A model generated the notes under the pieces. That model was not told the origin of the DNA and searched no databases. It saw nothing but the letters and a program-made list of their open reading frames with translations. Source: an uncultured bacterium (GTDB lineage Bacteria; Bacteroidota; Rhodothermia; Balneolales; DATFMH01). From it: a DNA stretch of 64,000 bases. A program made the translations under genes and the position numbers. Below, one piece after another: positions 5,102 through 57,703 of the stretch. The first letter of the stretch is position 1; each line of letters starts with the position of its first letter. The DNA lies in the NCBI GenBank assembly GCA_963787205.1, contig CAWBCD010000021.1, positions 92,714-156,713 of the forward strand, in the 5' to 3' direction.

Positions 5102-6460
5102 TCAACTTCCTGCCACAGAATGTTTTCGACGATTCCTTTTAAAAAGGAGAAAAGCCGGGATGCCTGCCAATACAGTCAGTAAGGCAAAGGATGATTCAGC
5201 CGGCCTCTCAAAAAAAGCAAGCAACAGAATGAGAGTACCAGTGATTGCATAGACAATGGGGGGCACCGCTGATCCTAAATGTTCATGCTTTACTTTTCGG
5301 AGTTTGAATACCCCGAGGACTGCCAGGATCGGGAAAATTCCGAGTGAAAATCCCATGTAGGTCAGGATCTGATCGAAAGTGCCCGAAAGGACCATGATGA
5401 TGGAAAGACCACTCTGCAGGAGGATAGCTTTTGACGGAACATTATTGGCCGGATTAACATTAGAAACGAACCTGAAGAAATAGCCATCCTTTGCCATGGA
5501 ATAATAGACACGCGGACCGAGAATGATAAAGGCGCTTAGTGAGGAGAACAGTGCAAAAGAGATCAACAGAGAGAAAACCGTCTCCATTGAGCGTCCGAAC
5601 AGGGTGCCCACAGCCAGTCCCCCGATTGAAATAACGCCGCTCATATTTTGGGGTGCCACTGCATAAATGAATAACAGGTTCAAAAGAAAATAGAGCAGAA
5701 TTACACTGCCGGTTCCAATCAGCAGGGATAAAGGGATGTTTTTTGATGGATCCCGGATCTCGGATCCGATATATGTGGAGGCATTCCATCCGCTGTAAGC
5801 AAACATGATCCACATAAGTGATAATCCAATCGTTTTCCAGCCGCCGAAGTCATAAGTATACGATCCGCCCGATGTCAGGTGGTTTATATCACCATCACCC
5901 CAGGCAAAACCGATGGCGATCAGGCCGACGATCAGAGCTACTTTTAATACGGTGAGGTAGTTCTGAACCTTTGCTCCGAATTCGATGCCACGAAGGTGGA
6001 TGGCTGTGAATAACAGAATTGCGAGGAGAGCGAGTCCTTTTTTAATTGTAACCGGCGACAGAAACGGAACCGGGTTCTCCAGTACGATGATGGCAGGAAA
6101 AGCACGTACAAAATATTCGCTGAACCCAATGGCCGATGCAGCAATTGGAGCAGAGAAGCCAACGATGAATGAAATCCATCCGCTAAGAAAACCGATCATC
6201 GGATGATAGAGGCGGGATAGAAAGAGATATTCCCCGCCGGCATGAGGCATGGCAACCCCCAGCCTGCTATATGCGAATGCACCGCAGAAAGCAATAACTC
6301 CACCGGCAATCCAAAGAAAAATCATGATCATGGGATTGCGGAGATCAGCCATCAATAATCCGGAAGTCGTGAAGATCCCGGCACCAATCATATTTGCAAT
6401 GACGATATTAGTGACCGGGAACAGTCCGAGTCTCCGTTCCAATTGCACATCGGTTGCCAT
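5102..6460 (-). CDS. APC-superfamily amino acid permease
   Basis: 452 aa with about 12 predicted TM helices and a typical N-terminal motif (IANMIGAGIFTTSG). Confidence 0.85.
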   Translation of the reverse strand: MATDVQLERRLGLFPVTNIVIANMIGAGIFTTSGLLMADLRNPMIMIFLWIAGGVIAFCGAFAYSRLGVAMPHAGGEYLFLSRLYHPMIGFLSGWISFIVGFSAPIAASAIGFSEYFVRAFPAIIVLENPVPFLSPVTIKKGLALLAILLFTAIHLRGIEFGAKVQNYLTVLKVALIVGLIAIGFAWGDGDINHLTSGGSYTYDFGGWKTIGLSLMWIMFAYSGWNASTYIGSEIRDPSKNIPLSLLIGTGSVILLYFLLNLLFIYAVAPQNMSGVISIGGLAVGTLFGRSMETVFSLLISFALFSSLSAFIILGPRVYYSMAKDGYFFRFVSNVNPANNVPSKAILLQSGLSIIMVLSGTFDQILTYMGFSLGIFPILAVLGVFKLRKVKHEHLGSAVPPIVYAITGTLILLLAFFERPAESSFALLTVLAGIPAFLLFKRNRRKHSVAGS

Positions 6461-13067: not shown

Positions 13068-14216
13068 TTAATCTGGTATGGTTACTTTAAGTACCTCACC
13101 CGCTCCGTCCGGGGCGCCAAAACCAAGAGCCGATACATAGATGTTCCCATCGGGACCAAATGTCATTCCGGTGGGAAGATTGAGTCCGTCGGCAATGACC
13201 ACTCTTTTACCCGAATTATCTAAGCGTATAATTTTACCAGAATTCGGAATAGGGCCCGGACTGCTCATGGAGGTGTTCTCCAGTACATAGATACGCCGAT
13301 GCTGGTCAATCAGGATTCCAAGAATTGTGGTAAACCCGCTGGCCCAGACTTTTATTTGTCCGCTAGGGGTTACCTTGAAAATGTTGGAGCTTCCCTCGAC
13401 AATCGGAAACGTGTCAAGATTTCCCAAAAAGAAATTTCCATTGTAGGCTACAACAGTAGGGACAATGTGTCCCTGCGTCGCCGACACATCGATAACCCGG
13501 TTAATTTGACCTGAAGTGGTGACACGCACCATCTCTCCATGATTGGGTTCGACAGCATAAAGGTTATCTTTCACATTGATCATGCCGTACCACGTTCCAT
13601 CGGGTTCAAAATCTTCTTCTTCAGGATGAGCGACCGGATGTGACTGCTGCCAGACACTGAGATTGGCAATCATAGTCCACGACATGTCCGGGTTGATTCG
13701 AATAATTCCATTTGGGATTGATTCAACGCCGTGAGAGCACCCCGCTCCAGCGAGAAGCGCATAGAGCGTATGATTGATGAATGCTACATCGGCCACCCCC
13801 ATTTTCAGACCCCCTGTTACTGGGGATGTTTGGCTTGATGGCAGGTTATCAACATAAGTCGTCCTTTGTCCTGATGGACTGATTCTTGAAATCCTGCTTC
13901 CATTAATACTTCCCTTGTATGGACCTATGGGGGGAATGACTTGGTCACAAGCATTAGTTGTGGAATCAGTACCGCCTATTCCTGCCTCAGCTACATATAA
14001 ATAGCCATCTGGTCCGAATTTGAGTCCGCGAGGATTATTTAACCCTGTCGCAAAGACTGTGACAGGGCCCATATTTGGTACTTCAGGACTGCTCTTATGC
14101 ACAGATAGTGGTTCCGATACCGTATTGTCCTGAGGTTTGGTGAGATCGTTTTTACAGGAGATTAGCAGAAACAGTAATCCGGTTAATAGGACGAAGACGC
14201 TTGATACACGTTTCAT
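13068..14216 (-). CDS. Beta-propeller lipoprotein (ScyD/ScyE-like / NHL-type repeats)
   Basis: 382 aa with lipobox LLISC and repeated motifs NPRGLKFGPDGYLYVAEAG and PTGMTFGPDGNIYV. Confidence 0.6.
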   Translation of the reverse strand: MKRVSSVFVLLTGLLFLLISCKNDLTKPQDNTVSEPLSVHKSSPEVPNMGPVTVFATGLNNPRGLKFGPDGYLYVAEAGIGGTDSTTNACDQVIPPIGPYKGSINGSRISRISPSGQRTTYVDNLPSSQTSPVTGGLKMGVADVAFINHTLYALLAGAGCSHGVESIPNGIIRINPDMSWTMIANLSVWQQSHPVAHPEEEDFEPDGTWYGMINVKDNLYAVEPNHGEMVRVTTSGQINRVIDVSATQGHIVPTVVAYNGNFFLGNLDTFPIVEGSSNIFKVTPSGQIKVWASGFTTILGILIDQHRRIYVLENTSMSSPGPIPNSGKIIRLDNSGKRVVIADGLNLPTGMTFGPDGNIYVSALGFGAPDGAGEVLKVTIPD

Positions 14217-15201
14217 AAAGGCCTCCTTAATTAATAAACAGTAAGAGAGAATAGAAAAAAAGGATAATGCTATACCAGCCAGGAAAGGACCTGGTCGGCA
14301 ATAGTTAAATCACCTAAGATGTTATGATGTCCCTCAACAAATCGCTTTGGTGATTAATCAACACGCGGCAAGATTCATATGGTTCGCAGAATTGAATAAG
14401 TCTAGTGATGGTTTTACCTGGTTTGAAATCCTGCTTATCATGTTACTATATAACGATACGTAAATGTATAATAAATTAATAAATAACAACATTATAAATT
14501 GTTTATTCGCATCATTGAATGATGGCCGTTATGTCTGCCAATCACAAAGTCGTTACATGCAATATAGAAATCAGTATTACTTCGATTCGTTGGTGAAGCT
14601 ATAAGTGTATTTGTTGGGTAACATATCATCTCAGAAAGAAGAATAGAGGCAATGTATATCATGTGTATAGCCCTAATCAATTGTCAGAGAACAACTCATG
14701 CTCCTTTATGGTAAACAAAGCTATTTCTTGTGATATCTTGTTATTTATCGAATAAATAATTGTTTTATTTTTGTTTGAAATTATTTTTATGGAATATATA
14801 TGTTGAAAGTATCGTACATAATTAACAATTTTTTATTGTGTTTACTAATTTTATTTTATTCACATATATGTAATTTTAAATAAAAATTACAGCCTTATTG
14901 AGTGCTTTAATATTATGTTAATATTAATATTTATGGGGATTTATATTTATTCTTGGTAAGACCATTTGTAAAGGTAATCTTTAGATATATGCGTTGCTTA
15001 TTAAGTAAAAAAAAACGATATATTACTGTATTACCTGATCTTGTCTTTACTTCGTGATTTCTATCTTATTAGGCGGCTCTAAAATAAAATATTGAGGTTG
15101 TTTGTCGGTTGTTACTTCCTGATGTGTCGCGGTAAAATAAAGTATTATTAAATACATTTTTAAATTAAATCATAATACTTTCGTGTTAAATATTTATATC
15201 T
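14217..15201. other. About 1-kb strongly AT-rich non-coding island upstream of the ECF sigma gene
   Basis: No credible ORF. Long A/T runs. AT hairpin TGTAATTTT-aaata-AAAATTACA at 14869-14891. Composition is visibly different from the flanking genes. Confidence 0.7.
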
Positions 15202-15762
15202 GTGAAAATTTTAAGAAATAGAAATTCAGATATATGTCATGACATAAGTGTTGGAAACAGGGACGCCCTGTCTTTTTTATTTAATGAATATTATTCCCAT
15301 TTGTACAATTATGGTATGAAATTGCTTCATCGAAATGATGAAATGATTAAGGATTGTATACAAGATGTTTTTTTGTCAATTTGGATCAATAGGGAGCGAA
15401 TTGCAGAAGTAAAATCAATTAAATCCTACCTGTTTTCGGCACTCAGGTTTACAGTTTATGATGAGCTTGAGAAATCCAAAACAAGGTTGATAAGGGAGAA
15501 TAAATATCATGAGGATATGGATTCTGAACTTTATGATATTGAACAACTTATGATTCATTTTGAGATTAAAATGGAGAGGAAGAATCTTGTAGAGGAGTCT
15601 TTGAAAAAACTAAGCAAAAGAAAAAAAGAGGCTATTTATCTGAGGTTTTTTCAGGGTTTGAGCAATGAGGAAATTGCAAGCGTAATGAATATAAACACGC
15701 AAAGTGTGTATAACCTGATTTCCGAATCAATTAGCCAACTGCAGCGTCTTGTTGATAAATAA
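15202..15762 (+). CDS. ECF-type RNA polymerase sigma-70 factor
   Basis: 186 aa with a GTG start. Region-2-like DCIQDVFLSIW and region-4 HTH LSNEEIASVMNINTQSVYNLISES. Confidence 0.85.
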   Translation: MKILRNRNSDICHDISVGNRDALSFLFNEYYSHLYNYGMKLLHRNDEMIKDCIQDVFLSIWINRERIAEVKSIKSYLFSALRFTVYDELEKSKTRLIRENKYHEDMDSELYDIEQLMIHFEIKMERKNLVEESLKKLSKRKKEAIYLRFFQGLSNEEIASVMNINTQSVYNLISESISQLQRLVDK

Positions 15763-29745: not shown

Positions 29746-32055
29746 TCACGGCCACTCCTGTGCAGGGATGGTTTCGTCTCTGCCCCATCTTTTATTCGGC
29801 TTGCGACCCATCCTAAATACAATCTTGCCGCCGTTTTTCAACTGATCGAAGGGCAGGAAGGGACTGTTCCATTTCTTGCCGTTCAGCACAACGGACTGGA
29901 TGTATATATTTTTAGGAGACTGGTTTTCAGCGATCATCGTAAAATCCTTGCCGTCTGAAAGGTGCATGACAGCCTTCTTAACCAGCGGACTCCCAATCAC
30001 ATAATAACTGCTTCCAGGACAGACCGGGTAAAATCCCATCGTATTAAATATATACCAAGCCGACATCTGCCCGCAGTCGTCATTGCCTTTCAGCGAGTTG
30101 GGTTTATCCCCGTACATAAGTTTCACGATCTGATGGATGCGCATTTGTGTTTTCCACGGCTGACCGGCATAGCAATATAAGAACGCGATGTGATGACTCG
30201 GTTCGTTGCCATGAGCATATTCCCCTATCAAACCTGTAATATCGAGTGTGTCCCCGTTTTGAACGGTGCCCGGACGCATGGTAAACAGGGAATCAAGTTT
30301 TTCAGTAAACCGTTTCTTCCCTCCCATAAGCTTGATCAGGCCCGGTACATCCTGCGGTACGAACCAACTGTACTGCCAGCTTGTGCCTTCGGTGAAATCG
30401 CCGCCTTCCACATATTGATGCGGATGAAATGGGGTATGCCAGTGGCCATGGGAGTCCTTGCCGCGCATCAACCCGTACGTCGGATCGAAGAGATTTTTGT
30501 AGCTTTCGGCACGTTTCATGAAGTACTGGTAGTCCTGCTGCTTGCCGAGAGCTTTGGCCATCTGTGCGATGCACCAGTCGTCGTACGCGTATTCCAGCGT
30601 TTTGGATACCGATTCGTTTTCCTCGTCGTCCGGAACGTATCCAAGTTTGGCAAAAGTCGATGCATGGTCATAGTTCGGGTTCATCGCCGTCTTCTTGATG
30701 GCTTCATAAGCTCGTTCCGGGTCAAATCCCTTAACGCCTTTCATATAAGCATCAACGATGACGGGCACGGCGTGATAACCGATCATGCACCATGTTTCAT
30801 TGCCCTGAAGCGACCATACCGGCAGCATGTGCTCCACGCTCTGATCATAGTGGGCAAGCATGGAGTTGACCATGTCTCCGTCCCGTTTCGACTGAACGAG
30901 TGCAAGGAGCGGGTGCTCGGCGCGGAACGTGTCCCAAAGTGAAAAAATCGTGTATTTGGTAAACCCTTTGGCTTTGTGTATTTCCCAATCGAGACCCCGG
31001 TACTTCCCGTTGACGTCTTCATAAAGATTGGGCGTCAGGAAAGAGTGGTAGAGCGAGGTGTAGAAGGTCTCCATCTGGTCTTTCGTGCCGTCAATCCGAA
31101 TCTTATCGAGTTGCTTTTCCCATTTATCACGGGTCTCGCGGCGGACGCGGCTGAAGTTCCAGTCTGGTATCTCCGCATCCAGGTTTTGCATGGCATCGGA
31201 CTCACTGACCGCCGATATACCCACCTTGATCATAATTTGTTCATTGGCGTGTGTCTTAAATTGGGCCAGGAATTTCAGGTCCTTACCCGACGCCTCGCGC
31301 GCACTCCGGAACCGGTAGGTATTGTAGATGACGGGCTTCCCATCCATCATGATGCGGAAGTGTTCAAACGGTTTGGAATAGCGGGCGGCAAAATAGAGAT
31401 ACCGTTCCTTTGCCCAGCCATGAACAAGATGAAAACCGGTTATGGTCGAATCGTTAAGTACACGGATATGCGACCAGATTACATTCCAGCGCAGAACGTG
31501 TTTGAGATCAGTCAGCACAAACGCACTGTCGGAGGCCGGGAACGTAAAACGCATCAATCCTGCGCGTTCAGTGCAGGTCAGCTCTACATTGATGCCCGAA
31601 TCCTGCAACCTGACCTGGTAATAACCGGGAGATGCCTGTTCATCATTATGAGAATAACGCTGGCGATGGCCCGAATCGGGATCCTGCTTCGTTCCTTCAG
31701 CGAGCAACGGACGCCCGATGTTTGGCATAAACAGGAAATCACCCAGATCGGGAATGCCCGTACCTGAAAGGTGGGTCATGCTGAAACCGATGATCGATTT
31801 ATCAGAGTATTCATATCCTGAAGCAGTGGCCCACAGCGAGTCATCCGTATCGGGACCAATCTGTACCATCCCAAAAGGGGCCGATGGTCCCGGGAACGTA
31901 TTGCCGTCACCCTCTGTGCCAACGAATGGATTTACAAAGTCGACTAGTGAAGTATCCTTATCAGCCGGTTGTTGTTTCTTTTTAGGTATCCCGGCAACAA
32001 GAAGGGAAGGGATGCATATCAATACAAAAAGCAGGGGAACTCGTTTATTGACCAT
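29746..32055 (-). CDS. GH92-family alpha-mannosidase, secreted
   Basis: 769 aa with a signal peptide. The N-terminal motif NPFVGTEGDGNTFPGPSAPFGMVQIGPDT is diagnostic of GH92. Confidence 0.9.
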   Translation of the reverse strand: MVNKRVPLLFVLICIPSLLVAGIPKKKQQPADKDTSLVDFVNPFVGTEGDGNTFPGPSAPFGMVQIGPDTDDSLWATASGYEYSDKSIIGFSMTHLSGTGIPDLGDFLFMPNIGRPLLAEGTKQDPDSGHRQRYSHNDEQASPGYYQVRLQDSGINVELTCTERAGLMRFTFPASDSAFVLTDLKHVLRWNVIWSHIRVLNDSTITGFHLVHGWAKERYLYFAARYSKPFEHFRIMMDGKPVIYNTYRFRSAREASGKDLKFLAQFKTHANEQIMIKVGISAVSESDAMQNLDAEIPDWNFSRVRRETRDKWEKQLDKIRIDGTKDQMETFYTSLYHSFLTPNLYEDVNGKYRGLDWEIHKAKGFTKYTIFSLWDTFRAEHPLLALVQSKRDGDMVNSMLAHYDQSVEHMLPVWSLQGNETWCMIGYHAVPVIVDAYMKGVKGFDPERAYEAIKKTAMNPNYDHASTFAKLGYVPDDEENESVSKTLEYAYDDWCIAQMAKALGKQQDYQYFMKRAESYKNLFDPTYGLMRGKDSHGHWHTPFHPHQYVEGGDFTEGTSWQYSWFVPQDVPGLIKLMGGKKRFTEKLDSLFTMRPGTVQNGDTLDITGLIGEYAHGNEPSHHIAFLYCYAGQPWKTQMRIHQIVKLMYGDKPNSLKGNDDCGQMSAWYIFNTMGFYPVCPGSSYYVIGSPLVKKAVMHLSDGKDFTMIAENQSPKNIYIQSVVLNGKKWNSPFLPFDQLKNGGKIVFRMGRKPNKRWGRDETIPAQEWP

Positions 32056-32186: not shown

Positions 32187-32213
32187 TTGGTCCAGGTTAC
32201 AAACCTGAACCGG
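32187..32213. repeat. REP-like palindromic element, copy 3 (opposite loop orientation)
   Basis: TTGGTCCAGGTT-aca-AACCTGAACCGG, with one arm mismatch relative to copy 2. Confidence 0.65.
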
Positions 32214-32386: not shown

Positions 32387-32472
32387 CCCGGTAAATCGGG
32401 GGACCATAGTACCTCCTATTTCAAAAATTACTACATTCAGTAAAGCCAATATTCATCAATCGAGAGTAACAA

Positions 32473-33093
32473 ATGAGCCGGAAGTACAAATTCTGTGATT
32501 CTACGCGCCCCTATTTTGTCAGCTATGCAACCGTTCATTGGATTGATCTGTTCACAATAAGTTTCACAAATTAACCATGGAGGTGGATTGATACTTGCCG
32601 GGAATGATAAATGGGAAGCTAGCTGCCAACTCCAAGCACTACGGATGTCATCCTGAACCCTGATGGAGTGTAACTCATTAGCAATGACGTTTTTTGGGTG
32701 AAGGATCTCGTTCGCAGCCGGGAACTATCGGTGCAACTGATCCCATCGTTTAGGCCTGCAGACCAGATCCTACTTCCTCCGGCAAGCCGGAGAAAATCAG
32801 GATGACATCTTTGGGTTTGGGGTTTGCCATAGGGAGCAAGGAAAGAGTGGATTTTGAGGATGTTCAGCAGTGCAGGTTAAAAGAACTCCAATAACAAAAC
32901 CTGGCAGGTGTGGCAGCAACATAACCATCCTGTTGAATTAGCTTACAATAAAATGATCGAACAACGCCTGAATTACCTTCATATGAATCCTGTGAAAGCT
33001 GGTTATGTCGACCGTCCTGAGGATTGGCTCTATAGCAGCACCAAACAAGATGCAGGTTTACCCGGGATGCTCAAGCTTGAGCTGATTGAGTGA
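32473..33093 (+). pseudogene. Degraded Y1 (HUH) transposase gene of the RAYT/IS200-like 'MSRKYKF' family
   Basis: The frame is conserved end to end but carries about 7 in-frame stops. The N-terminus MSRKYKFCDSTRPYFVSYATVHWIDLFT and C-terminus WQQHNHPVELAYNKMIEQRLNYLHMNPVKAGYVDRPEDWLYSS match the family as I remember it. The HUH position reads TTDVIL (H to D and H to I). An extra ~70 nt is present at 32763-32826. Confidence 0.75.
32763..32826. repeat. Hairpin-containing element, locus A (homologous to 53989-54065)
   Basis: cCAGATCCTACttcctccggc-aa-gccggagaaAAATCAGGATGACATCTTTgggtttg. The flanks are shared with locus B, and the stem differs from B by paired substitutions. Confidence 0.7.
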
Positions 33094-50186: not shown

Positions 50187-51053
50187 TTAATACTTATAGA
50201 TCACATGCATTCTTGATACATCCGATAGTTTTATTCTGTCATTGCCGGTGCCTTCATACGACTTTATCGTATTGGAAAAGCGAAATTCATACACTTTTAA
50301 TGTGTTTGGGTCGAGTCTCACACTGCCTTTTATCATTTGTCCTCTAAAATTTCCTGTGTCCACCGGTTTAGAATGGGCTACCAAATCAGCGGTTTTGGTA
50401 TAGTATTTTTGGTATTGATTTTTATTTGGGATATATGTGAAATGCACGATCAGTGGTTTTCGGGGACCGCTGCCACGGGAGAATGTGATGTTCTGCGCAT
50501 ACAAAACCGAGTCGCCCGTTGTCTGCCTGATATAAACGCTGTCTTTCCATGTCTCCCCAACGCGGGCGGTTCGCCCGATAATCTGGCCAATGGTAAACCA
50601 GTATCTGGTTCTTTCCCTTGCCCTTAGCATGTTTCGAAAAAGAGTCGCCTTGTTAGCAGGTAGATTCTTCAGTTGTCCTTCCAGGATTTCGGGCAATTCA
50701 ATACTCCTCAGTTTACCGTCCGGATCTAAATGGTAGGTAACGGTTGCCGTCTTTAAATCGGCTTCGCTCACATTCATTTTTTTATCAAACATTTTGGGAG
50801 ACGGCGTATATAAGAAAAGGTATCCGGATTGATTTTTCCTTGCATCAACATCAATAATCTGGGTCTTATTGGTGATGGTTGAAGGATCGGGTTTCGTGTC
50901 AAATAGGTAGTATGCGCTGTAGATCGAATCGATTTCCGTGTAGGAAATATTTGATGGGAGATTGAGCCTGAAATGATACTGCTGTGCCAGCAAATGGCCG
51001 GGAAGGATAGCGACCGTGATTGTGGCACAGAAAAAGATAACAAAGTGTCTCAT
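50187..51053 (-). CDS. Secreted hypothetical protein
   Basis: 288 aa with a signal peptide (MRHFVIFFCATITVAILPGHLLAQ) and no recognised domain. Confidence 0.5.
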   Translation of the reverse strand: MRHFVIFFCATITVAILPGHLLAQQYHFRLNLPSNISYTEIDSIYSAYYLFDTKPDPSTITNKTQIIDVDARKNQSGYLFLYTPSPKMFDKKMNVSEADLKTATVTYHLDPDGKLRSIELPEILEGQLKNLPANKATLFRNMLRARERTRYWFTIGQIIGRTARVGETWKDSVYIRQTTGDSVLYAQNITFSRGSGPRKPLIVHFTYIPNKNQYQKYYTKTADLVAHSKPVDTGNFRGQMIKGSVRLDPNTLKVYEFRFSNTIKSYEGTGNDRIKLSDVSRMHVIYKY

Positions 51054-52144: not shown

Positions 52145-53401
52145 TTAATCTACATTCATTCCAATTAGTCTCCAAAACTCCGGTTCGGCCAGGATTTTTA
52201 AACCATATTCCCGGGCCTTTTTGGCTTTACCAGACATGGTATTAGGGTTTGAAGCAACGAGATAATCTAATTTCTTCGATACGCTCTTTTTGATAATCAT
52301 GCCATGTTGTTGGGCTACCTTCTGAGCCAATGATCTCTCTACAATCTTTCCATTAATTCTGGATTGAAGTTGTCCCGTAAAACAAATTGATTTTCCTTCG
52401 ACCATATTATTGAAATGGAATTTATTGTTTGAAACAATTTCACCCGTCCTTGCGGTTGCAATAAGAGTTCCAATTTCGGATTGTTTAAGACCGAGTAATT
52501 GAGTTAAATCCTTAAGATCTTTCATTTCGAATTCAGAAATTTTACCGTCCAAGAGATAGACCTTAATTACTTCAGTTAAATACTGTTTATGTAATTCGAC
52601 AATTTGATCTCTTGATAGTCGGAACTCTTCAACCAATTCTTCAAGCTTAATTAATTCAGTGCGGGTAATAATCCGATCCGCCAGAATTTCAATAAGAGTG
52701 TCCAGATATTGTTTCGAGTTTTCGTCCCCGGTAATCGAATCAGTCGGTAGCCTTTTAATGAAATCCTGAAGTTTGGTTTTCTCTTTTTGGGATTCATTAA
52801 ACGCCTCACTTCTCCTGTATTCAATTCTCTTCTGAGGTCTTATCCTTTGGGTTTTGAATGAAACAGGGTTTACATATTGTTGTTCAAAATTTCTGACTCC
52901 GAAATGACTTAAAAATTCATTCTTTAATTTTATAAATAATTTTGTCGTAGCCAGAGCATCAGATAGGGCCTCATGGGAATTATTTGTTTCTATATCGTAA
53001 TACTCGCATAAAACATCAAGTCTTCTGCCTGAAAGACTTGTGTCAACCGTTCTGGAAAGTTTAATAGTACAAATTCCATCCAATTTTCTCTCCTGATCTA
53101 CAAGTTCGTTCTCAAGAAATCTCAGATCAAAAGATGCATTATGCGCAACGAGGGTTGAACCATTCAAAAATGATTTTACAAAATGTTTTACCTCCTTAAA
53201 TGGAGGTGCATGTTTAACAAGTCCCGGTTCAATTCCATGAACATAATAGTTTGATATATCACGTTCAGGGTTTATCAGCGTACTATACCGATCAATTATT
53301 TTATCATTTTCATCGATCTTGACGATGCCGATCTCTATTATTTTATCTCCTCTGAGCGGGGAAAATCCGGTCGTCTCCAGATCAAAAATACTGAACATCA
53401 T
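52145..53401 (-). CDS. DEDDh (DnaQ-like) 3'-5' exonuclease fused to a helical middle region and a C-terminal BRCT domain
   Basis: 418 aa. Exo motifs FDLETTG, AHNASFD and HEALSDA. The C-terminus GKSICFTGQL...LDYLVASNPNTMSGKAKKAREYGLKILAEPEFW is BRCT-like. Confidence 0.8.
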   Translation of the reverse strand: MMFSIFDLETTGFSPLRGDKIIEIGIVKIDENDKIIDRYSTLINPERDISNYYVHGIEPGLVKHAPPFKEVKHFVKSFLNGSTLVAHNASFDLRFLENELVDQERKLDGICTIKLSRTVDTSLSGRRLDVLCEYYDIETNNSHEALSDALATTKLFIKLKNEFLSHFGVRNFEQQYVNPVSFKTQRIRPQKRIEYRRSEAFNESQKEKTKLQDFIKRLPTDSITGDENSKQYLDTLIEILADRIITRTELIKLEELVEEFRLSRDQIVELHKQYLTEVIKVYLLDGKISEFEMKDLKDLTQLLGLKQSEIGTLIATARTGEIVSNNKFHFNNMVEGKSICFTGQLQSRINGKIVERSLAQKVAQQHGMIIKKSVSKKLDYLVASNPNTMSGKAKKAREYGLKILAEPEFWRLIGMNVD

Positions 53402-53772
53402 TTTTCTTGTGAATCACTAAATCCTTCCGAATTATTAATAAAATTGACTTTCGTCTCCGTCTTCGAACAGATAAGTATGCATTCTTTAGATAAATCAATA
53501 TCCAAATCTTCTCCTCTTAAACCTTGCCATTGTGCTAGGTATTGAAATGTGCCGATTTTATTTGCAATCTTTTTAGTGACTCCGCCTTTCCATCCCAAAA
53601 CAGGAAGTTCACCTTTCTTCGCACGTTCTGCCAACCCCGGTTCAGACTCACTTAATTTTCGCCCAACCTCCCAGCAGGTGATCAATCCCTTATCAGGACC
53701 TCTCCATCGTTCAGCGAATGTCAAATGTTCTCTAATAGGTTCGCGAATAGATCTGTAGATATGTTCCCTCAT
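53398..53772 (-). CDS. Hypothetical 124-aa protein translationally coupled to the exonuclease-BRCT gene
   Basis: ATGA stop/start overlap with the downstream gene. No recognisable motif. Confidence 0.55.
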   Translation of the reverse strand: MREHIYRSIREPIREHLTFAERWRGPDKGLITCWEVGRKLSESEPGLAERAKKGELPVLGWKGGVTKKIANKIGTFQYLAQWQGLRGEDLDIDLSKECILICSKTETKVNFINNSEGFSDSQEK

Positions 53773-53876
53773 GAATATTCCTCAAATTTTTGCCCAACGG
53801 TCCAGCGAATACACTGCGCCGGTTTGAAATATAAGTTAGTAGAATGAGCGGCAATTACAAGAGCCATTCTGAGGCA

Positions 53877-54210
53877 CTAAAGACATTTAGTCTCAATGAA
53901 AAGATGGTTTGGGTTGATCCCGAGGAGTCGTTGCGTTTGTATTAAGAAACTATTTTTGAACTTGAAAAGATTGCTGCTGAGTGCAAAACGAGATCCTACT
54001 TTTTCCCGCCACGGCGGGAAAAAATCAGGATGACATCTTTTGTTTGTGTTTGGTATGGGGTTGGTCCTCAATGCTCAGGCAAATCTCCAGGCTTGGGTCG
54101 TAGTCGATCTCCACTTTGAGTTGCTGTGAATCAGTTGTACAACACCTCCTTATACATATGTCCGGGTAAACAGATAAATCCACAGTACGGCGGTTGACTT
54201 TAGGTTTCAT
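53877..54210 (-). pseudogene. Second, heavily degraded Y1-transposase remnant (same family as 32473-33093)
   Basis: Minus-strand frames give, in family order: MKPK...DICIRR...SLEI (61-aa ORF 54025-54210), then KDVILIFSRRGGKK*DLV at the HUH position, then FKFKNSFLI and GINPN. Nucleotide strings GATGTCATCCTGA and GATCTCGTT are shared with the plus-strand copy. Confidence 0.4.
53989..54065. repeat. Hairpin-containing element, locus B (homologous to 32763-32826)
   Basis: cGAGATCCTACtttttcccgcc-ac-ggcgggaaaAAATCAGGATGACATCTTTtgtttg, with an 11-bp perfect stem. Confidence 0.7.
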
Positions 54211-54659: not shown

Positions 54660-55262
54660 TTATTTTTTAGCGCAGTCGGCACATACCTTTTTATCACCTT
54701 TAATGCGTCCGTATTCCATAACGGTCATTTCGCCGCACTCCTCGCAGACAAAACTGTTAAAGCTGTGAGGCACTTCCTGATAGTTGTAGTCGAACACGTC
54801 CGATATATTCAACAGTTGGTCTTCTGTCGTGCTCATCACTTTGGTTACGAGCGGGTTAATAACATCATCCGGTACCTGGCCGGCCAGGATGCCTTTCTCA
54901 CGGTATTTCTTGAAGAAATCGGTCTGTTTGTTAGCCAGCATTATTTCGGCTTTGGGAGTCACACGGACGGCTTTGTTCCTCTTCTTATCGATGAGAGTTA
55001 CGGCCCATTTACCCTTTTGGGTTTTGCGGATATTTCCCTTGCCGAAGGTAGTCCCCCTTATCACCTGCAGACCATCAGCATAGCAGGTTGCACAGTGATG
55101 ATCCCCAATATCGACAATGGCCACCAGTTGTCCGTCTCCGGCTCGTTCGACACCGAGTTTATTCATAGCCGCAGCGCCTGCCCGTAAACCTAAAGGCATG
55201 GCAGGACATTTATGACCGTGAAATTTTTGGCCGAATTCCAGCCAATCCTGTGGATTAACCAT
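54660..55262 (-). CDS. FmdE-domain protein with C-terminal zinc ribbon (copy 2)
   Basis: The track ORF extends to 55355. ATG 55262 (MVNPQDW) follows GGAGGA. FHGHKCPAMPLGLRAG is the FmdE N-terminal motif. C-terminal CEECGE...CADC. Confidence 0.8.
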   Translation of the reverse strand: MVNPQDWLEFGQKFHGHKCPAMPLGLRAGAAAMNKLGVERAGDGQLVAIVDIGDHHCATCYADGLQVIRGTTFGKGNIRKTQKGKWAVTLIDKKRNKAVRVTPKAEIMLANKQTDFFKKYREKGILAGQVPDDVINPLVTKVMSTTEDQLLNISDVFDYNYQEVPHSFNSFVCEECGEMTVMEYGRIKGDKKVCADCAKK

Positions 55263-55275
55263 TTTGTTCCTCCTG

Positions 55276-56319
55276 TTATTGATTAAAAAAATATTGGATT
55301 TGTACTGTTGTAAGTGAATACGTTTTATGAGTTGTAAACTGAAATTTATCATCAAAAGAAAATTTGATATCGCTTCCTTTCAGCTTGTAGGAATATCCTA
55401 TCGTATACCACGGATCATCGATGGTTGATGGATTTAAATCGTGCAATTGTTCAAGAGAAAGGATGATCAAATTCTTGGGCGTTATGCTATAATGAGTCAG
55501 GGTATAGTATCCCCAGGCTTTTCGTTTCTTCAGATATGCTTCTAAAATTTCCGTCTGAAATTCAAATTTTGATAGTTTTAACCTGGCATCGAAACCATAT
55601 CTGAAATCATCCCCGGAAAAGGTGTCGGTATTCCCAAAAATTTTGGAGAATTTTAGCTCATTATCATTGCGGTAGGCAACCGAGTACCCGATGCGGAAAT
55701 CGGTCGATTTATTTTTCAGGTTTATAAACCCGCGATTTATATAAAGGAAATTCTTTTTGTCAGATACCGAATTCGCGCCGTTCCCGTTAAACAGTCCAAT
55801 GCTGATTCCACCAAAAGGGAAATTATATATCACTTCGGCTCCGATATCCCGTCCCATCGTTTCGGCTGTAGGTAGCAGGGCATTTATCACATCAGCTCTT
55901 TCGGTCAGAGGGATAAGGTAATCCGGTTGCTTTCTCTGTAAGCTGAAATCAGGAACAAATTGGCCTGCGGTTATGGCAAATCTGTCTGCTTTGTAATCGA
56001 TGAAAACATCCTGAAGCTGGAACATAAAATTTTGTTTGTTACAGAAAATGGATTGTAATTTGAATCCCCACTTATCTGATCCGAATGGTAATTGTCCATC
56101 CATCCAAAGCTTGGCACGCCGGATGGAAAAGCCGGCCTGATCCGAATAATTATCCGAAAAGCGGTATTGAAGATACCCGTTCCAATTAACCTTTTGCTGA
56201 GCAAAGGAAACGGAACGTATGCCAAGCAAAAATGCAAAAACAAAAAGGGAAGAAAATAAAGCTCTGAAGTAACGCAGAGGGTCACGGAGATGATACCCAC
56301 AAATCATAAAACACCCCAT
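55276..56319 (-). CDS. Outer-membrane porin (O/P-type-like beta-barrel)
   Basis: 347 aa with a signal peptide ending SFAQQ, alternating strands and a terminal aromatic (YFFNQ). The exact start is uncertain. Confidence 0.6.
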   Translation of the reverse strand: MGCFMICGYHLRDPLRYFRALFSSLFVFAFLLGIRSVSFAQQKVNWNGYLQYRFSDNYSDQAGFSIRRAKLWMDGQLPFGSDKWGFKLQSIFCNKQNFMFQLQDVFIDYKADRFAITAGQFVPDFSLQRKQPDYLIPLTERADVINALLPTAETMGRDIGAEVIYNFPFGGISIGLFNGNGANSVSDKKNFLYINRGFINLKNKSTDFRIGYSVAYRNDNELKFSKIFGNTDTFSGDDFRYGFDARLKLSKFEFQTEILEAYLKKRKAWGYYTLTHYSITPKNLIILSLEQLHDLNPSTIDDPWYTIGYSYKLKGSDIKFSFDDKFQFTTHKTYSLTTVQIQYFFNQ

Positions 56320-57061: not shown

Positions 57062-57703
57062 CTACTTAATACCCGGCAGATGAATTACCGTCTCATCTGC
57101 TGTTCTTTCCGAACAAGAAATACAAACCTTCTTGCCATCCTTAACACGCAGGTATCTCTCGAACACATATTCCCCGCATACTTCACACTTTGCCTTGTTG
57201 AAAGAACCTTTAACCGGTGTGTACTTGAAATCGGGGAGAACCGTTACATTGAATAGTTCCTCATCCGTTGCGTCTAAGACGATATCAATAATATCTTTTC
57301 TGATTCCTTCGGGAATTTCACTCGGCTCTATTCCTTGTTTGCGGTATTTGAAGAATTCGTGGGGGGCAAGCCTATCCTGGAATTCATTTTTCAATGCAAT
57401 CCTTGCCGCATCTTTCTTTCCGGGATACCAAAAGATGGCTGCTACTTTGCCATAGTTTAATTTTTCGATCATTCCTTTGCCAAAAGTGGCACCGGTTGCC
57501 GACATAATGCCGTCTTGCATGCAACCTTGTGGATGGCCGATACCCATTTCTGAGAACACGTGCATCTCGTGATTATGACTTTTTTCAACGCCCAATCTTT
57601 CAAGTGCCAGCGTTCCCATCCGGTAGCCAATCGGCATAAAAGGGCATCGATGACCGTGAAATTCAAAGGTCCATTCCGGTAAATCGAATTTTGTTTTTTT
57701 CAT
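57062..57703 (-). CDS. FmdE-domain protein with C-terminal zinc ribbon (copy 1)
   Basis: 213 aa. FHGHRCPFMPIGYRMG. C-terminal CEVCGE...CISC. Confidence 0.8.
   Translation of the reverse strand: MKKTKFDLPEWTFEFHGHRCPFMPIGYRMGTLALERLGVEKSHNHEMHVFSEMGIGHPQGCMQDGIMSATGATFGKGMIEKLNYGKVAAIFWYPGKKDAARIALKNEFQDRLAPHEFFKYRKQGIEPSEIPEGIRKDIIDIVLDATDEELFNVTVLPDFKYTPVKGSFNKAKCEVCGEYVFERYLRVKDGKKVCISCSERTADETVIHLPGIK

Follow-up and report, generated by a model that had tools for sequence, protein, structure and literature searches.

A gene for a small, highly conserved protein and a gene for an exonuclease form a two-gene cassette on the minus strand of the window, the whole 64,000-nucleotide stretch of Balneolales DNA that was analysed, and we put slightly short of an even chance on this cassette being a horizontally spread two-component conflict or defence module. 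The small 124-aa protein, termed SP, is encoded at 53398..53772 (minus strand), and the 418-aa exonuclease, whose domains are arranged in the order DEDDh, TerB-like and BRCT, is encoded at 52145..53401 (minus strand). The ORF coordinates agree with the original prediction that the two reading frames overlap by ATGA (53398..53401, minus strand), in which the stop codon TGA of SP meets the start codon ATG of the exonuclease gene. This overlap is kept in an 84% relative (L089/L090), and the arrangement of a small SP gene overlapping a larger nuclease gene suggests translational coupling.

Judged by its profile match, the 418-aa protein is a full-length member of the PADLOC candidate PDC-S48. It aligns with model PDLC05027 over residues 2-414 and model positions 5-406 of 411 (E 1.3e-97, 325.5 bits). 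PDC-S48, which is represented by models PDLC05027 and PDLC05028, has the same layout of DEDDh domain, middle domain and BRCT domain, and both the window protein and a Balneolaceae relative match it end to end. It had been stated at the outset that no named defence system is known to have such a composition, and this statement must be corrected, because the exonuclease is already listed as that candidate. PDC-S48 is catalogued as a single-gene system, whereas the gene in the window overlaps the conserved SP gene, for which PADLOC holds no model. A literature search found no published work on PDC-S48 or on the combination of TerB, BRCT and exonuclease domains.

The DEDDh domain (RNase_T, a DnaQ/epsilon-like 3'-5' exonuclease) occupies residues 5-156 (52934..53389, minus strand; Pfam RNase_T E 5e-31), and its catalytic residues D7, E9, D92, H143 and D148, which make up the ExoI, ExoII and ExoIII motifs, are invariant in 54 homologues. 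The AF2 model of the protein has a pLDDT of 90.2. Foldseek matched it to E. coli epsilon (TM 0.82, rmsd 2.3-2.4 Å), including the epsilon-Hot complex 2ido (TM 0.82), and to the exonucleases of PolC and DinG and to ExoX. On this model the exonuclease domain is predicted to be closest in fold to the DNA-proofreading exonucleases, with epsilon nearest. At the other end of the protein lies a LigA-like BRCT domain (residues about 338-413; 52163..52390, minus strand), recognised by Pfam (PF00533, residues 354-413, E 2.9e-7, 31.1 bits against a gathering cut-off of 21.3) and by a sequence match to the DNA ligase 1dgs in the PDB (E 7e-4). A complete DnaQ-like exonuclease joined to a C-terminal BRCT domain, as originally predicted, is therefore present. 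The BRCT segment is basic (pI 10.1), and its residues T342, G343, S390 and K392 are invariant in the same 54 homologues; by analogy, these may be the phosphate-pocket residues of the (S/T)-G...K type.

Between these two domains is a helical middle domain (residues about 197-319; 52445..52813, minus strand) for which AF2 predicts seven helices. When the whole protein was used in the fold search, matches to the exonuclease domain predominated. A TerB-like fold had been suggested for the middle region, and Pfam TerB (PF05099) matches 11 of the 54 homologues at E <= 0.01 (best 2.3e-6), but the window protein itself scores 18.2 bits (E 0.003), below the 24.4 cut-off. We regard the TerB-like assignment as modestly supported by these profile matches.

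SP is an uncharacterised, highly conserved family with no recognisable fold. Its 1076 homologues at 54-67% identity are spread across phyla, and they share 30 invariant alignment columns and the motifs GLITCWEVGR, GELPVLGWKGG and YLAQWQGLRGEDLDIDL. The family is compact (338 clusters among 1.84 billion protein representatives), patchily distributed (299 of 185,579 species genomes) and more conserved than its partner, with 52-61% identity versus 26-39%. Defence sensors tend to evolve fast, and conservation above that of the partner is uncommon among them; it rather suggests a cellular ligand that is itself conserved. No match was obtained with SP in Pfam, NCBIfam or PADLOC; a Pfam search at E <= 10 over 26 members gave noise only, and the SP profile found no PDB sequence at E <= 10. 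One of five AF2 models was confident (pLDDT 75.5), and fold searches rest on this moderately confident model. A macrodomain was considered as the fold and rejected, as the best Foldseek matches in PDB and BFVD had E > 2 and a TM of 0.18. WYL domains have been reported in fusion with 3'-5' exonuclease, SF1 helicase, BRCT and TerB domains (PMC4012209). WYL and Sm-like domains were likewise discarded for SP, with 0 of 26 members matched by Pfam at E <= 10, no hit of the profile in the PDB and nothing from Foldseek at E < 2. The median pI of SP is 8.5 (range 5.4-9.6), so that the protein is not strongly basic. SP had no match in 72,556 plasmids and was present in one of 50,697 GenBank phage records.

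The association of SP with a partner extends far beyond the window. Outside Pseudomonas, 33 of 40 species have SP next to a protein with a BRCT domain, as do 50 of 53 viral contigs. At 31 of the 40 species loci the immediate neighbour, encoded on the same strand and either before or after SP, is a DEDDh-BRCT exonuclease; the rest of the linkage is made up of a TerB-BRCT protein (2/40) and a GajB fusion (1/40). On the 53 viral contigs, SP stands beside a TerB-BRCT protein in 47, beside an exonuclease in three and within an exonuclease-SP fusion in one. The shorter exonuclease-BRCT and TerB-BRCT partners match the PDC-S48 model only in part, and the constant companion of SP is the BRCT/TerB part rather than the exonuclease domain. 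SP and the exonuclease are also fused in both orders (SP-RNase_T-BRCT, SP-RNase_T, RNase_T-SP and RNase_T-BRCT-SP), and these fusions are independent of one another. Because adjacency crosses phyla, gene order is flexible and fusions recur, SP and its partner can be taken as a functionally coupled module, as had been proposed for the pair in the window. No third gene is conserved across taxa, since the clustering of neighbours yielded only antisense shadow ORFs and lineage-specific synteny.

One further fusion ties SP to a known defence enzyme. At one homologous locus (L083), the GajB protein of a Gabija operon carries SP in frame at its C-terminus. A second GajB-SP fusion was absent from a collection of 5.8 billion proteins, Gabija occurs at no other examined locus, and the window contains no gajA/gajB pair. 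As a singleton from a MAG, this fusion was weighted as a single observation.

Among 45 full-length exonucleases of the PDC-S48 type, only about 3 have an SP partner and about 42 (about 93%) stand without one; SP is optional for this type of exonuclease, and it is SP, not the nuclease, that forms the conserved core. These counts bear on another reading of a small gene that overlaps a larger nuclease gene, namely a toxin-antitoxin-like addiction module in which SP would neutralise a toxic exonuclease and the pair would stabilise a mobile island. Toxin-antitoxin genes are indeed frequent neighbours of homologous loci, and an AT-rich gene with a patchy distribution would fit. We nevertheless consider this reading very improbable, because the pair is not obligatorily linked. 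The many PDC-S48-type exonucleases that lack SP imply that the nuclease is not intrinsically toxic, and the closest relative (L089/L090) has a frameshifted SP gene beside an intact exonuclease gene. Furthermore, conservation is higher in SP than in the putative toxin, some SP partners have no nuclease domain, and SP is also found fused to its partner.

The composition and position of the cassette agree better with horizontal spread. The cassette has a GC content of 0.370 (0.360 for the exonuclease gene) against 0.451 for the whole window, which places it within the lowest 3% of windows of the same length. The GC3 values of its two genes, 0.320 and 0.328, compare with a gene mean of 0.486 (sd 0.067). 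The AT-richness first noticed by eye is thus borne out by the GC profile, and the cassette is compositionally foreign. Of 35 homologous loci, 25 show a higher AT content in the exonuclease gene than in the flanking sequence. Among Balneolales relatives the exonuclease gene lies at differing loci, where SP is present, frameshifted, in reversed order or absent. In one population the pair is located within a parAB-gidAB-purD region. Orthologues do not share one conserved core position and the composition does differ, so that on both counts the original reading is not refuted.

Homologous loci often lie among genes of defence or of mobile elements. One set is flanked by HicAB, SocA/Panacea, HEPN-ApeA and a HaeIII restriction-modification pair, and others by HNH, UvrD and a DruE-like 2131-aa helicase, by a P4-like integrase, Phage_GPA and an AAA_15 pair, or by TIR/SEFIR genes and IS elements. 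The original interpretation is supported by these surroundings, in which several loci have toxin-antitoxin, restriction-modification or TIR genes as neighbours, or genes of Druantia-like and P4-like islands. In the window the neighbours are ordinary genes (AhpD-like, DUF2569, FmdE-like, porin and TauE). We found no direct or inverted repeats flanking the cassette, no Rfam matches at 50-56 kb, no tRNA within the window and no excess of promoter- or terminator-like sites over shuffled sequence. The cassette and its flanks are conserved at about 81% in a related genome, which indicates that acquisition was not recent. A horizontally moving module is favoured by foreign composition and by varying positions in relatives, but not by the weak transposase scar or the ordinary neighbours in the window. 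Overall the original observation is partly confirmed and its interpretation partly supported. In weighing a defence module, we counted against it the non-defence neighbours in the window, the parAB-gidAB-purD locus, solitary SP genes, the scarcity of exonucleases with SP (about 3 of 45), the non-recent acquisition, the singleton GajB-SP fusion and the high conservation of SP.

If the cassette is a conflict or defence module, SP would be the constant specificity or sensor subunit that works with a BRCT-bearing partner. It would dock on this partner, probably via the BRCT/TerB part, and may direct or license it where invading or replicating foreign DNA has 3' ends or nicks. Here the partner would be a functional 3'-5' DNA exonuclease of the epsilon-like kind that also carries a TerB-like domain, and by digesting DNA from its 3' ends it would block the replication of phages or plasmids. 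Other DEDDh exonucleases are known to act against phages. TONDOs, which were found as homologues of ISG20, are ISG20-like DEDDh exonucleases with catalytic residues located deeper in the sequence (D91-D191) that act on the 3' ends of RNA phages, and their anti-phage activity needs variable auxiliary domains or, once, an adjacent small ORF (PMC13344964). We took this dependence on an auxiliary domain or small ORF as a precedent for SP and exonuclease (PMC13344964). In contrast to TONDOs, the window protein has an N-terminal exonuclease domain predicted to be closest to DNA proofreaders.

The likeness to proofreading exonucleases is the starting point for the main rival explanation, in which the pair serves as a DNA repair or replication accessory and the small SP, much as theta or Hot does for epsilon, stabilises or targets an exonuclease that acts in alternative proofreading or trims ends. 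We judge this rather unlikely. In DNA polymerase III, too, a DEDDh exonuclease (epsilon) has a small protein dedicated to it (theta), for which phage P1 encodes a counterpart (Hot), and the fold of the window exonuclease is nearest to epsilon, including that in the epsilon-Hot complex. In contrast to theta and Hot, SP (about 123 aa, predicted alpha/beta) has no sequence or fold similarity to the PDB, 2ido included. The mycobacterial DnaQ, which consists of DEDDh and BRCT domains, is a clamp-bound alternative proofreader (10.1101/2023.10.24.563508) and lends weight to a repair role. Proteins of this type (Rv3711c), as well as PRK06063 and PRK06195, likewise have an N-terminal epsilon-like exonuclease and a C-terminal BRCT domain, but the window protein carries an additional TerB-like helical insert of about 130 aa between them. 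Moreover, it falls below every NCBIfam equivalog threshold for DnaQ (TIGR01406, 101.3 against 222.7; PRK05711, 94 against 196) and for DnaQ-BRCT proteins (128.7 against 389 and 94.5 against 373 for PRK06063 and PRK06195), and inspection of its C-terminus revealed no Q[Y/L]ALF clamp-binding motif. DnaQ is a core gene, whereas the cassette is patchy and compositionally foreign.

A repair role could take the form that the LigA-like BRCT domain brings the complex to nicks, 5'-phosphate ends or replisome proteins, a detail to which we assign the same rather low probability. In keeping with it, the partners of SP (exonuclease, UvrD-type helicase and LigA-like BRCT) act at DNA 3' ends or nicks, and the high conservation of SP would be expected for contact with a conserved cellular target. 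An AhpD-like neighbour in the window and a bleomycin-resistance-like neighbour elsewhere also fit. Set against this are the occurrence of SP in so few species genomes (299 of 185,579), the atypical composition, positions that vary among close relatives, and neighbourhoods that are often defence or mobile-element regions.

In 31 of 40 Pseudomonas species SP is kept by itself at one fixed place in the chromosome (GH15-SP-AraC), and a solitary SP gene lies between histidine kinase genes in Desulfobulbales; this looks like vertical, housekeeping-like inheritance, and such retention at fixed loci in both groups favours a repair accessory. The conservation of SP, together with its solitary survival in many Pseudomonas, again suggests a conserved ligand. 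LexA/SOS control of the Pseudomonas SP genes was rejected, as no CTG-N10-CAG box lies upstream, a result that weakens the case for repair.

The phage versions of SP bring in a different partner and a different setting. In temperate Pseudomonas-type phages the partner is a nuclease-free TerB-BRCT protein, with the same TerB-like domain and BRCT domain as in the window exonuclease. Phage PG1 and some 20 viral contigs share one gene order, an S24 repressor gene followed by SP and then by TerB-BRCT, divergent from a Cro/YdaS-like gene. The rexAB genes of phage lambda are lysogen-expressed exclusion genes located downstream of the CI repressor gene. By analogy, and for the phage version of SP only, the arrangement resembles rexAB in being a two-gene cassette directly downstream of, and co-oriented with, a CI-like repressor gene, with no sequence relationship. 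From this position the phage cassette would act in the lysogen, where SP and TerB-BRCT may, for example, exclude other phages. If the pair instead serves repair, the copy beside the S24/LexA-like repressor, being nuclease-free, might tune host repair or the SOS response, which again seems to us unlikely.

The same order of S24 repressor, SP and TerB-BRCT could also mean that SP regulates the life cycle of a prophage or element, through repressor cleavage, induction or element replication, with the link to the exonuclease being secondary. The fusion of SP to HTH_3 (P0301) and, possibly, to sigma region 4 (P0486) points in this direction, as does the conserved leader of orphan SP genes, which bears a palindrome distinct from the LexA box. 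We hold a regulatory role of this kind to be improbable, since most non-phage SP genes stand beside an exonuclease gene with no repressor nearby, and SP has neither a recognisable DNA-binding fold nor a strongly basic charge.

Returning to a conflict or defence module, we tentatively propose a wider role that is possible but somewhat doubtful. SP may be an undescribed, widely transferred adaptor or sensor family that, together with its BRCT partner, makes up a new two-gene system against phages or plasmids, this partner being the exonuclease in bacteria and TerB-BRCT in the immunity region of temperate phages. SP could also be attached to defence enzymes such as GajB, and PDC-S48 would then provide just the effector of a modular system, the constant component of which had escaped notice. 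To our knowledge, BRCT domains have barely been explored in bacterial immunity. Should the cassette be a defence system, it would represent a new two-component family whose architecture is mediated by BRCT and whose small protein has a new fold, and it would give the catalogue candidate PDC-S48 a defined partner. As SP links chromosomal exonucleases, repressor-proximal genes of temperate phages and, once, Gabija, it offers a route to study the recombination of defence modules. Should the pair be a repair accessory, SP would play the part of theta for non-replicative DnaQ-BRCT exonucleases, a class that is widespread.

The decayed Y1 transposase that had been read beside the cassette at 53877-54210 is weakly supported. 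Pfam finds no Y1_Tnp match there in any frame, but 53988-54060 gives a 75-nt match of 77% identity (E 3e-9, against the whole window) to 32762-32834, midway along a decayed RAYT/IS200-like gene (32467-33093, plus strand) whose C-terminal fragment matches TnpArep (PDB 4er8, E 0.004). A colinear, weak N-terminal resemblance (MSGNYKSH.. versus MSRKYKFC..) begins at 53843 on the plus strand. These matches delimit a possible short RAYT/IS200-like Y1 transposase remnant at 53843..54060 (plus strand), outside the module, with a palindrome at 53993-54031. Any such remnant, a weakly supported feature, would be short, would lie on the opposite strand from the cassette and would be of the type that is domesticated and REP-associated, and for these reasons it is poor evidence for mobilisation of the cassette. 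The intergenic sequence that carries it is kept to about 81% in the Balneolales relative L089.

Both ORFs of the cassette lie on the minus strand at exactly the coordinates originally proposed: a 124-aa ORF (53398..53772), whose product and its family we call SP, and a 418-aa exonuclease ORF (52145..53401), which share an ATGA at 53398-53401. The cassette is also AT-richer than its surroundings, as had been judged by eye. With a GC content of 0.370, where the window as a whole has 0.451, it falls within the lowest 3% of equal-length windows, and the two genes have GC3 values of 0.320 and 0.328 (gene mean 0.486, sd 0.067). In 25 of 35 loci the exonuclease gene exceeds its flanks in AT content, by 8-20 points in several, the Balneolales relatives of the window included. 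The window and the relative with an 84% identical exonuclease match at 81-86% from 54485 to 51305 and again over the DUF2569 gene; any acquisition is therefore older than their split. The adjoining segment of about 1.3 kb (51305-49983), which carries a 288-aa ORF without a Pfam match (50187-51053, minus strand), is missing from this otherwise syntenic relative (L089), indicating a local insertion or deletion beside the cassette. AT content peaks elsewhere in the window, at 13700-15300 (GC 0.29-0.31, more extreme than the cassette), a stretch that carries an ECF sigma factor gene (15202-15762, GC 0.32, GC3 0.33).

The decayed Y1 transposase predicted beside the cassette survived only in weak part. 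Pfam searches of the region in all frames returned nothing. Over 75 nt (77% identity, E 3e-9), 53988-54060 matches the central part of a decayed RAYT/IS200-like Y1 transposase gene at 32467-33093 (plus strand). The N- and C-terminal fragments of that gene lie in different frames, and the C-terminal one (..YLHMNPVKAGYVDRPEDWLYSS) matches E. coli TnpArep (PDB 4er8) with E 0.004. REP-like palindromes (GGTCCAGGTT..AACCTGGACC) at 29695-29718 and 32188-32211 lie near it and bracket a 769-aa gene (29746-32055). Any remnant beside the cassette would be short, on the plus strand and of the domesticated REP-associated kind. As the region is conserved along with the cassette in a related genome (about 81%), it tells little of how the cassette arrived.

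The 418-aa protein, whose nearest homologues come from Balneolales/Balneolaceae MAGs, carries an RNase_T/DEDDh domain (residues 5-156, Pfam E 5e-31) and a BRCT domain (residues 354-413, 31.1 bits, cut-off 21.3), and its confident AlphaFold model (pLDDT 90.2) places a seven-helix region between them (residues ~197-319). The modelled exonuclease domain superposes on E. coli epsilon (TM 0.82, rmsd 2.3-2.4 Å), with further structural matches to the PolC and DinG exonucleases and ExoX. Residues D7, E9, D92, H143 and D148 are invariant among 54 homologues, and with its catalytic residues kept the protein is predicted to be an intact epsilon-like 3′-5′ exonuclease. A TerB-like middle region had been guessed at, and homologues lend this modest support: Pfam TerB is below threshold in the window protein (E 0.003) and matches 11 of the 54 (best E 2.3e-6). 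The BRCT domain is LigA-like and basic (pI 10.1), and its conserved T-G...S-x-K suggests a phosphate pocket. Identity as a DnaQ equivalog was rejected on score, as none of the NCBIfam equivalog cut-offs for DnaQ, DnaQ-BRCT (PRK06063, PRK06195) or DinG/PolC was reached. By HMM, the protein is a member of the candidate family PDC-S48, whose PADLOC-DB model PDLC05027 aligns to it over the full length (E 1.3e-97). The PDC label stands for candidates for phage defence put forward on genomic context, and 'S' denotes a single-gene candidate; in the window PDC-S48 is not 'single-gene'. No mention of the family was found in the literature searched.

The more informative member of the pair is SP. Its 1076 homologues (54-67% identity, typical length 123 aa) occur in Planctomycetota (Kuenenia), Gammaproteobacteria, Desulfobacterota, Omnitrophota and others, in 299 of 185,579 species genomes, and form a compact family (338 clusters at 50% identity, 1.84 billion representatives searched). 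The alignment has 30 invariant columns and the motifs GLITCWEVGR, GELPxLGWKGG and YLAQWQGLRGEDLDIDL. Compared across the same loci, identity is 52-61% for SP and 26-39% for the exonuclease; SP changes at about half its partner's rate. No match was found among Pfam, NCBIfam and PADLOC models or PDB sequences, and the moderately confident structure model (pLDDT 75.5, one of five models good) has no fold neighbour in PDB or BFVD.

We classified the gene adjoining SP in three sets of loci. Among 40 non-Pseudomonas species, 31 have a DEDDh exonuclease partner (about 25 short, ~291 aa; six long and window-like), including two added by hand (L011, exonuclease cut by the contig end; L027, SP uncalled); the order is SP then exonuclease in 24 and the reverse in five. 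Two others have TerB-BRCT without nuclease, one a GajB fusion, one was not assessable, and five Desulfobulbales SPs stand partnerless between histidine kinase genes. In 53 IMG/VR viral contigs the partner is mostly TerB-BRCT without nuclease (47, ~200-230 aa), with three DEDDh exonucleases, one exonuclease-SP fusion and two lacking a partner. Of 40 Pseudomonas species, SP is alone in 31, beside TerB-BRCT in seven and beside a convergent exonuclease-BRCT gene in two. A BRCT domain, with or without TerB, is the partner's constant feature; the nuclease is not. SP and its association with BRCT appear to be undescribed in the libraries and literature searched. Independent fusions join SP and exonuclease in both orders: SP-RNase_T-BRCT (P0262, P0271), SP-RNase_T (P0263), RNase_T-SP (P0272, L144, P0484) and RNase_T-BRCT-SP (P0291, P0483). 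No third gene conserved across taxa was found at SP loci.

In Pseudomonas, SP always occupies one locus, GH15-SP-(variable)-AraC; the TerB-BRCT gene lies downstream in the seven species, and elsewhere an alpha/beta hydrolase gene or nothing. The leader of the orphan SP is almost invariant in the P. fluorescens group (L039-L087, ~5870-6000 of each locus), with a palindrome, ACAGC-GGA-GCTGT, directly before the ribosome-binding site; no LexA box was found in it.

The dependence between SP and exonuclease is one-sided, SP adjoining just three of about 45 full-length, metagenome-drawn PDC-S48-type exonucleases. Among relatives of the window protein, P0010 (56% identity) is encoded before SP, P0003 (65%) and P0012 (56%) lack SP and lie at unrelated genomic positions, and beside P0002 (84%) SP has a one-base deletion in an A-run. 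This deletion, identical in two assemblies (L089 1945-2324, L090 2072-2451), splits SP into two frames next to an intact exonuclease gene, and may reflect either genuine pseudogenization or a sequencing error in the homopolymer. A toxin-antitoxin-like module is very improbable, because most exonucleases have no SP and, in the closest relative, a frameshifted SP accompanies an intact exonuclease.

In Pseudomonas phage PG1 (OQ504958), an S24 (CI/LexA-like) repressor gene is followed by SP and a 181-aa TerB-BRCT protein annotated 'NAD-dependent DNA ligase'. The block runs divergently to a Cro/YdaS-like gene and the replication genes, with early genes and the integrase after it; about 20 viral contigs repeat this layout. 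We take the SP/TerB-BRCT slot, by textbook analogy, to be the rexAB position of lambda. That the pair regulates the life cycle of its element seems quite unlikely. DEDDh-BRCT exonucleases of 310-360 aa, without middle domain or SP, are encoded by many viral contigs (L145-L224), several of which come from a single very large metagenome, so such fusions are common in phages independently of SP.

Neighbours of bacterial SP-exonuclease pairs include HicAB, SocA/Panacea, HEPN-ApeA, a HaeIII restriction-modification pair, HNH, AAA ATPase, UvrD, a 2131-aa DEAD/MZB helicase of DruE type, a P4-like integrase, a Phage_GPA replication gene with an AAA_15 ATPase pair, a TIR/SEFIR protein and IS elements. 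In a Cellvibrionaceae MAG (L083 1870-6293), a bona fide Gabija operon (GajA E 1e-280, GajB E 7e-230) has SP joined in frame to the GajB C-terminus; no second protein spanning both halves was found in a 5.8-billion-protein collection, making the fusion a singleton. Ordinary-looking contexts occur elsewhere (parAB-gidAB-purD; GGT/XerC-like/GroEL). A role as an accessory to repair or replication, comparable to epsilon-theta/Hot or mycobacterial DnaQ-BRCT, is a somewhat unlikely reading. For a cassette with an intact exonuclease, LigA-like BRCT, TerB-like domain and a small partner that is both tightly linked and more conserved, we consider a conflict or defence role possible, at close to an even chance.

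In such a role, SP would bind the BRCT/TerB part of its partner, a contact that covalent fusions would replace, and may serve as a constant subunit, for specificity or sensing. Activity at DNA 3′ ends or nicks would come from the partner, since 3′-5′ exonuclease, UvrD-type helicase and ligase-like BRCT all act there. The window version would then degrade foreign replicating DNA in the 3′-5′ direction. Its phage counterpart has no nuclease and so must work differently, perhaps by occupying nicks or ends or recruiting host factors. A functional precedent for defence by a DEDDh enzyme with an auxiliary ORF is provided by TONDO exonucleases (PMC13344964), compared by description only, which are ISG20-like and have RNA as their substrate. 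WYL domains reportedly have the same set of fusion partners as SP (3′-5′ exonuclease, SF1 helicase, BRCT, TerB; PMC4012209); a WYL identity for SP was rejected, no test run giving WYL similarity. We regard the SP/BRCT-partner pair as a well-delimited, testable candidate, neither proven nor a categorically new system.

One population (L306-L313; L306 7001-9156) encodes a 161-aa unknown protein, SP, a 288-aa exonuclease-BRCT and a glyoxalase/bleomycin-resistance-like protein near parAB-gidAB-purD, with a DUF433-PIN toxin-antitoxin pair downstream in some contigs only. In the window the neighbours look ordinary (AhpD-like, DUF2569, DUF2568, YdjM, FmdE-like, porin and TauE genes). Paralogues combining FmdE-like and DksA/TraR zinc-ribbon parts (54660-55355, 57062-57703) enclose the porin and TauE exporter genes, and just beyond them an intergenic 19-nt sequence, TAAGTAATCATTTACTTAC, occurs three times (57723, 58870, 59230), perhaps serving as a common operator or promoter.
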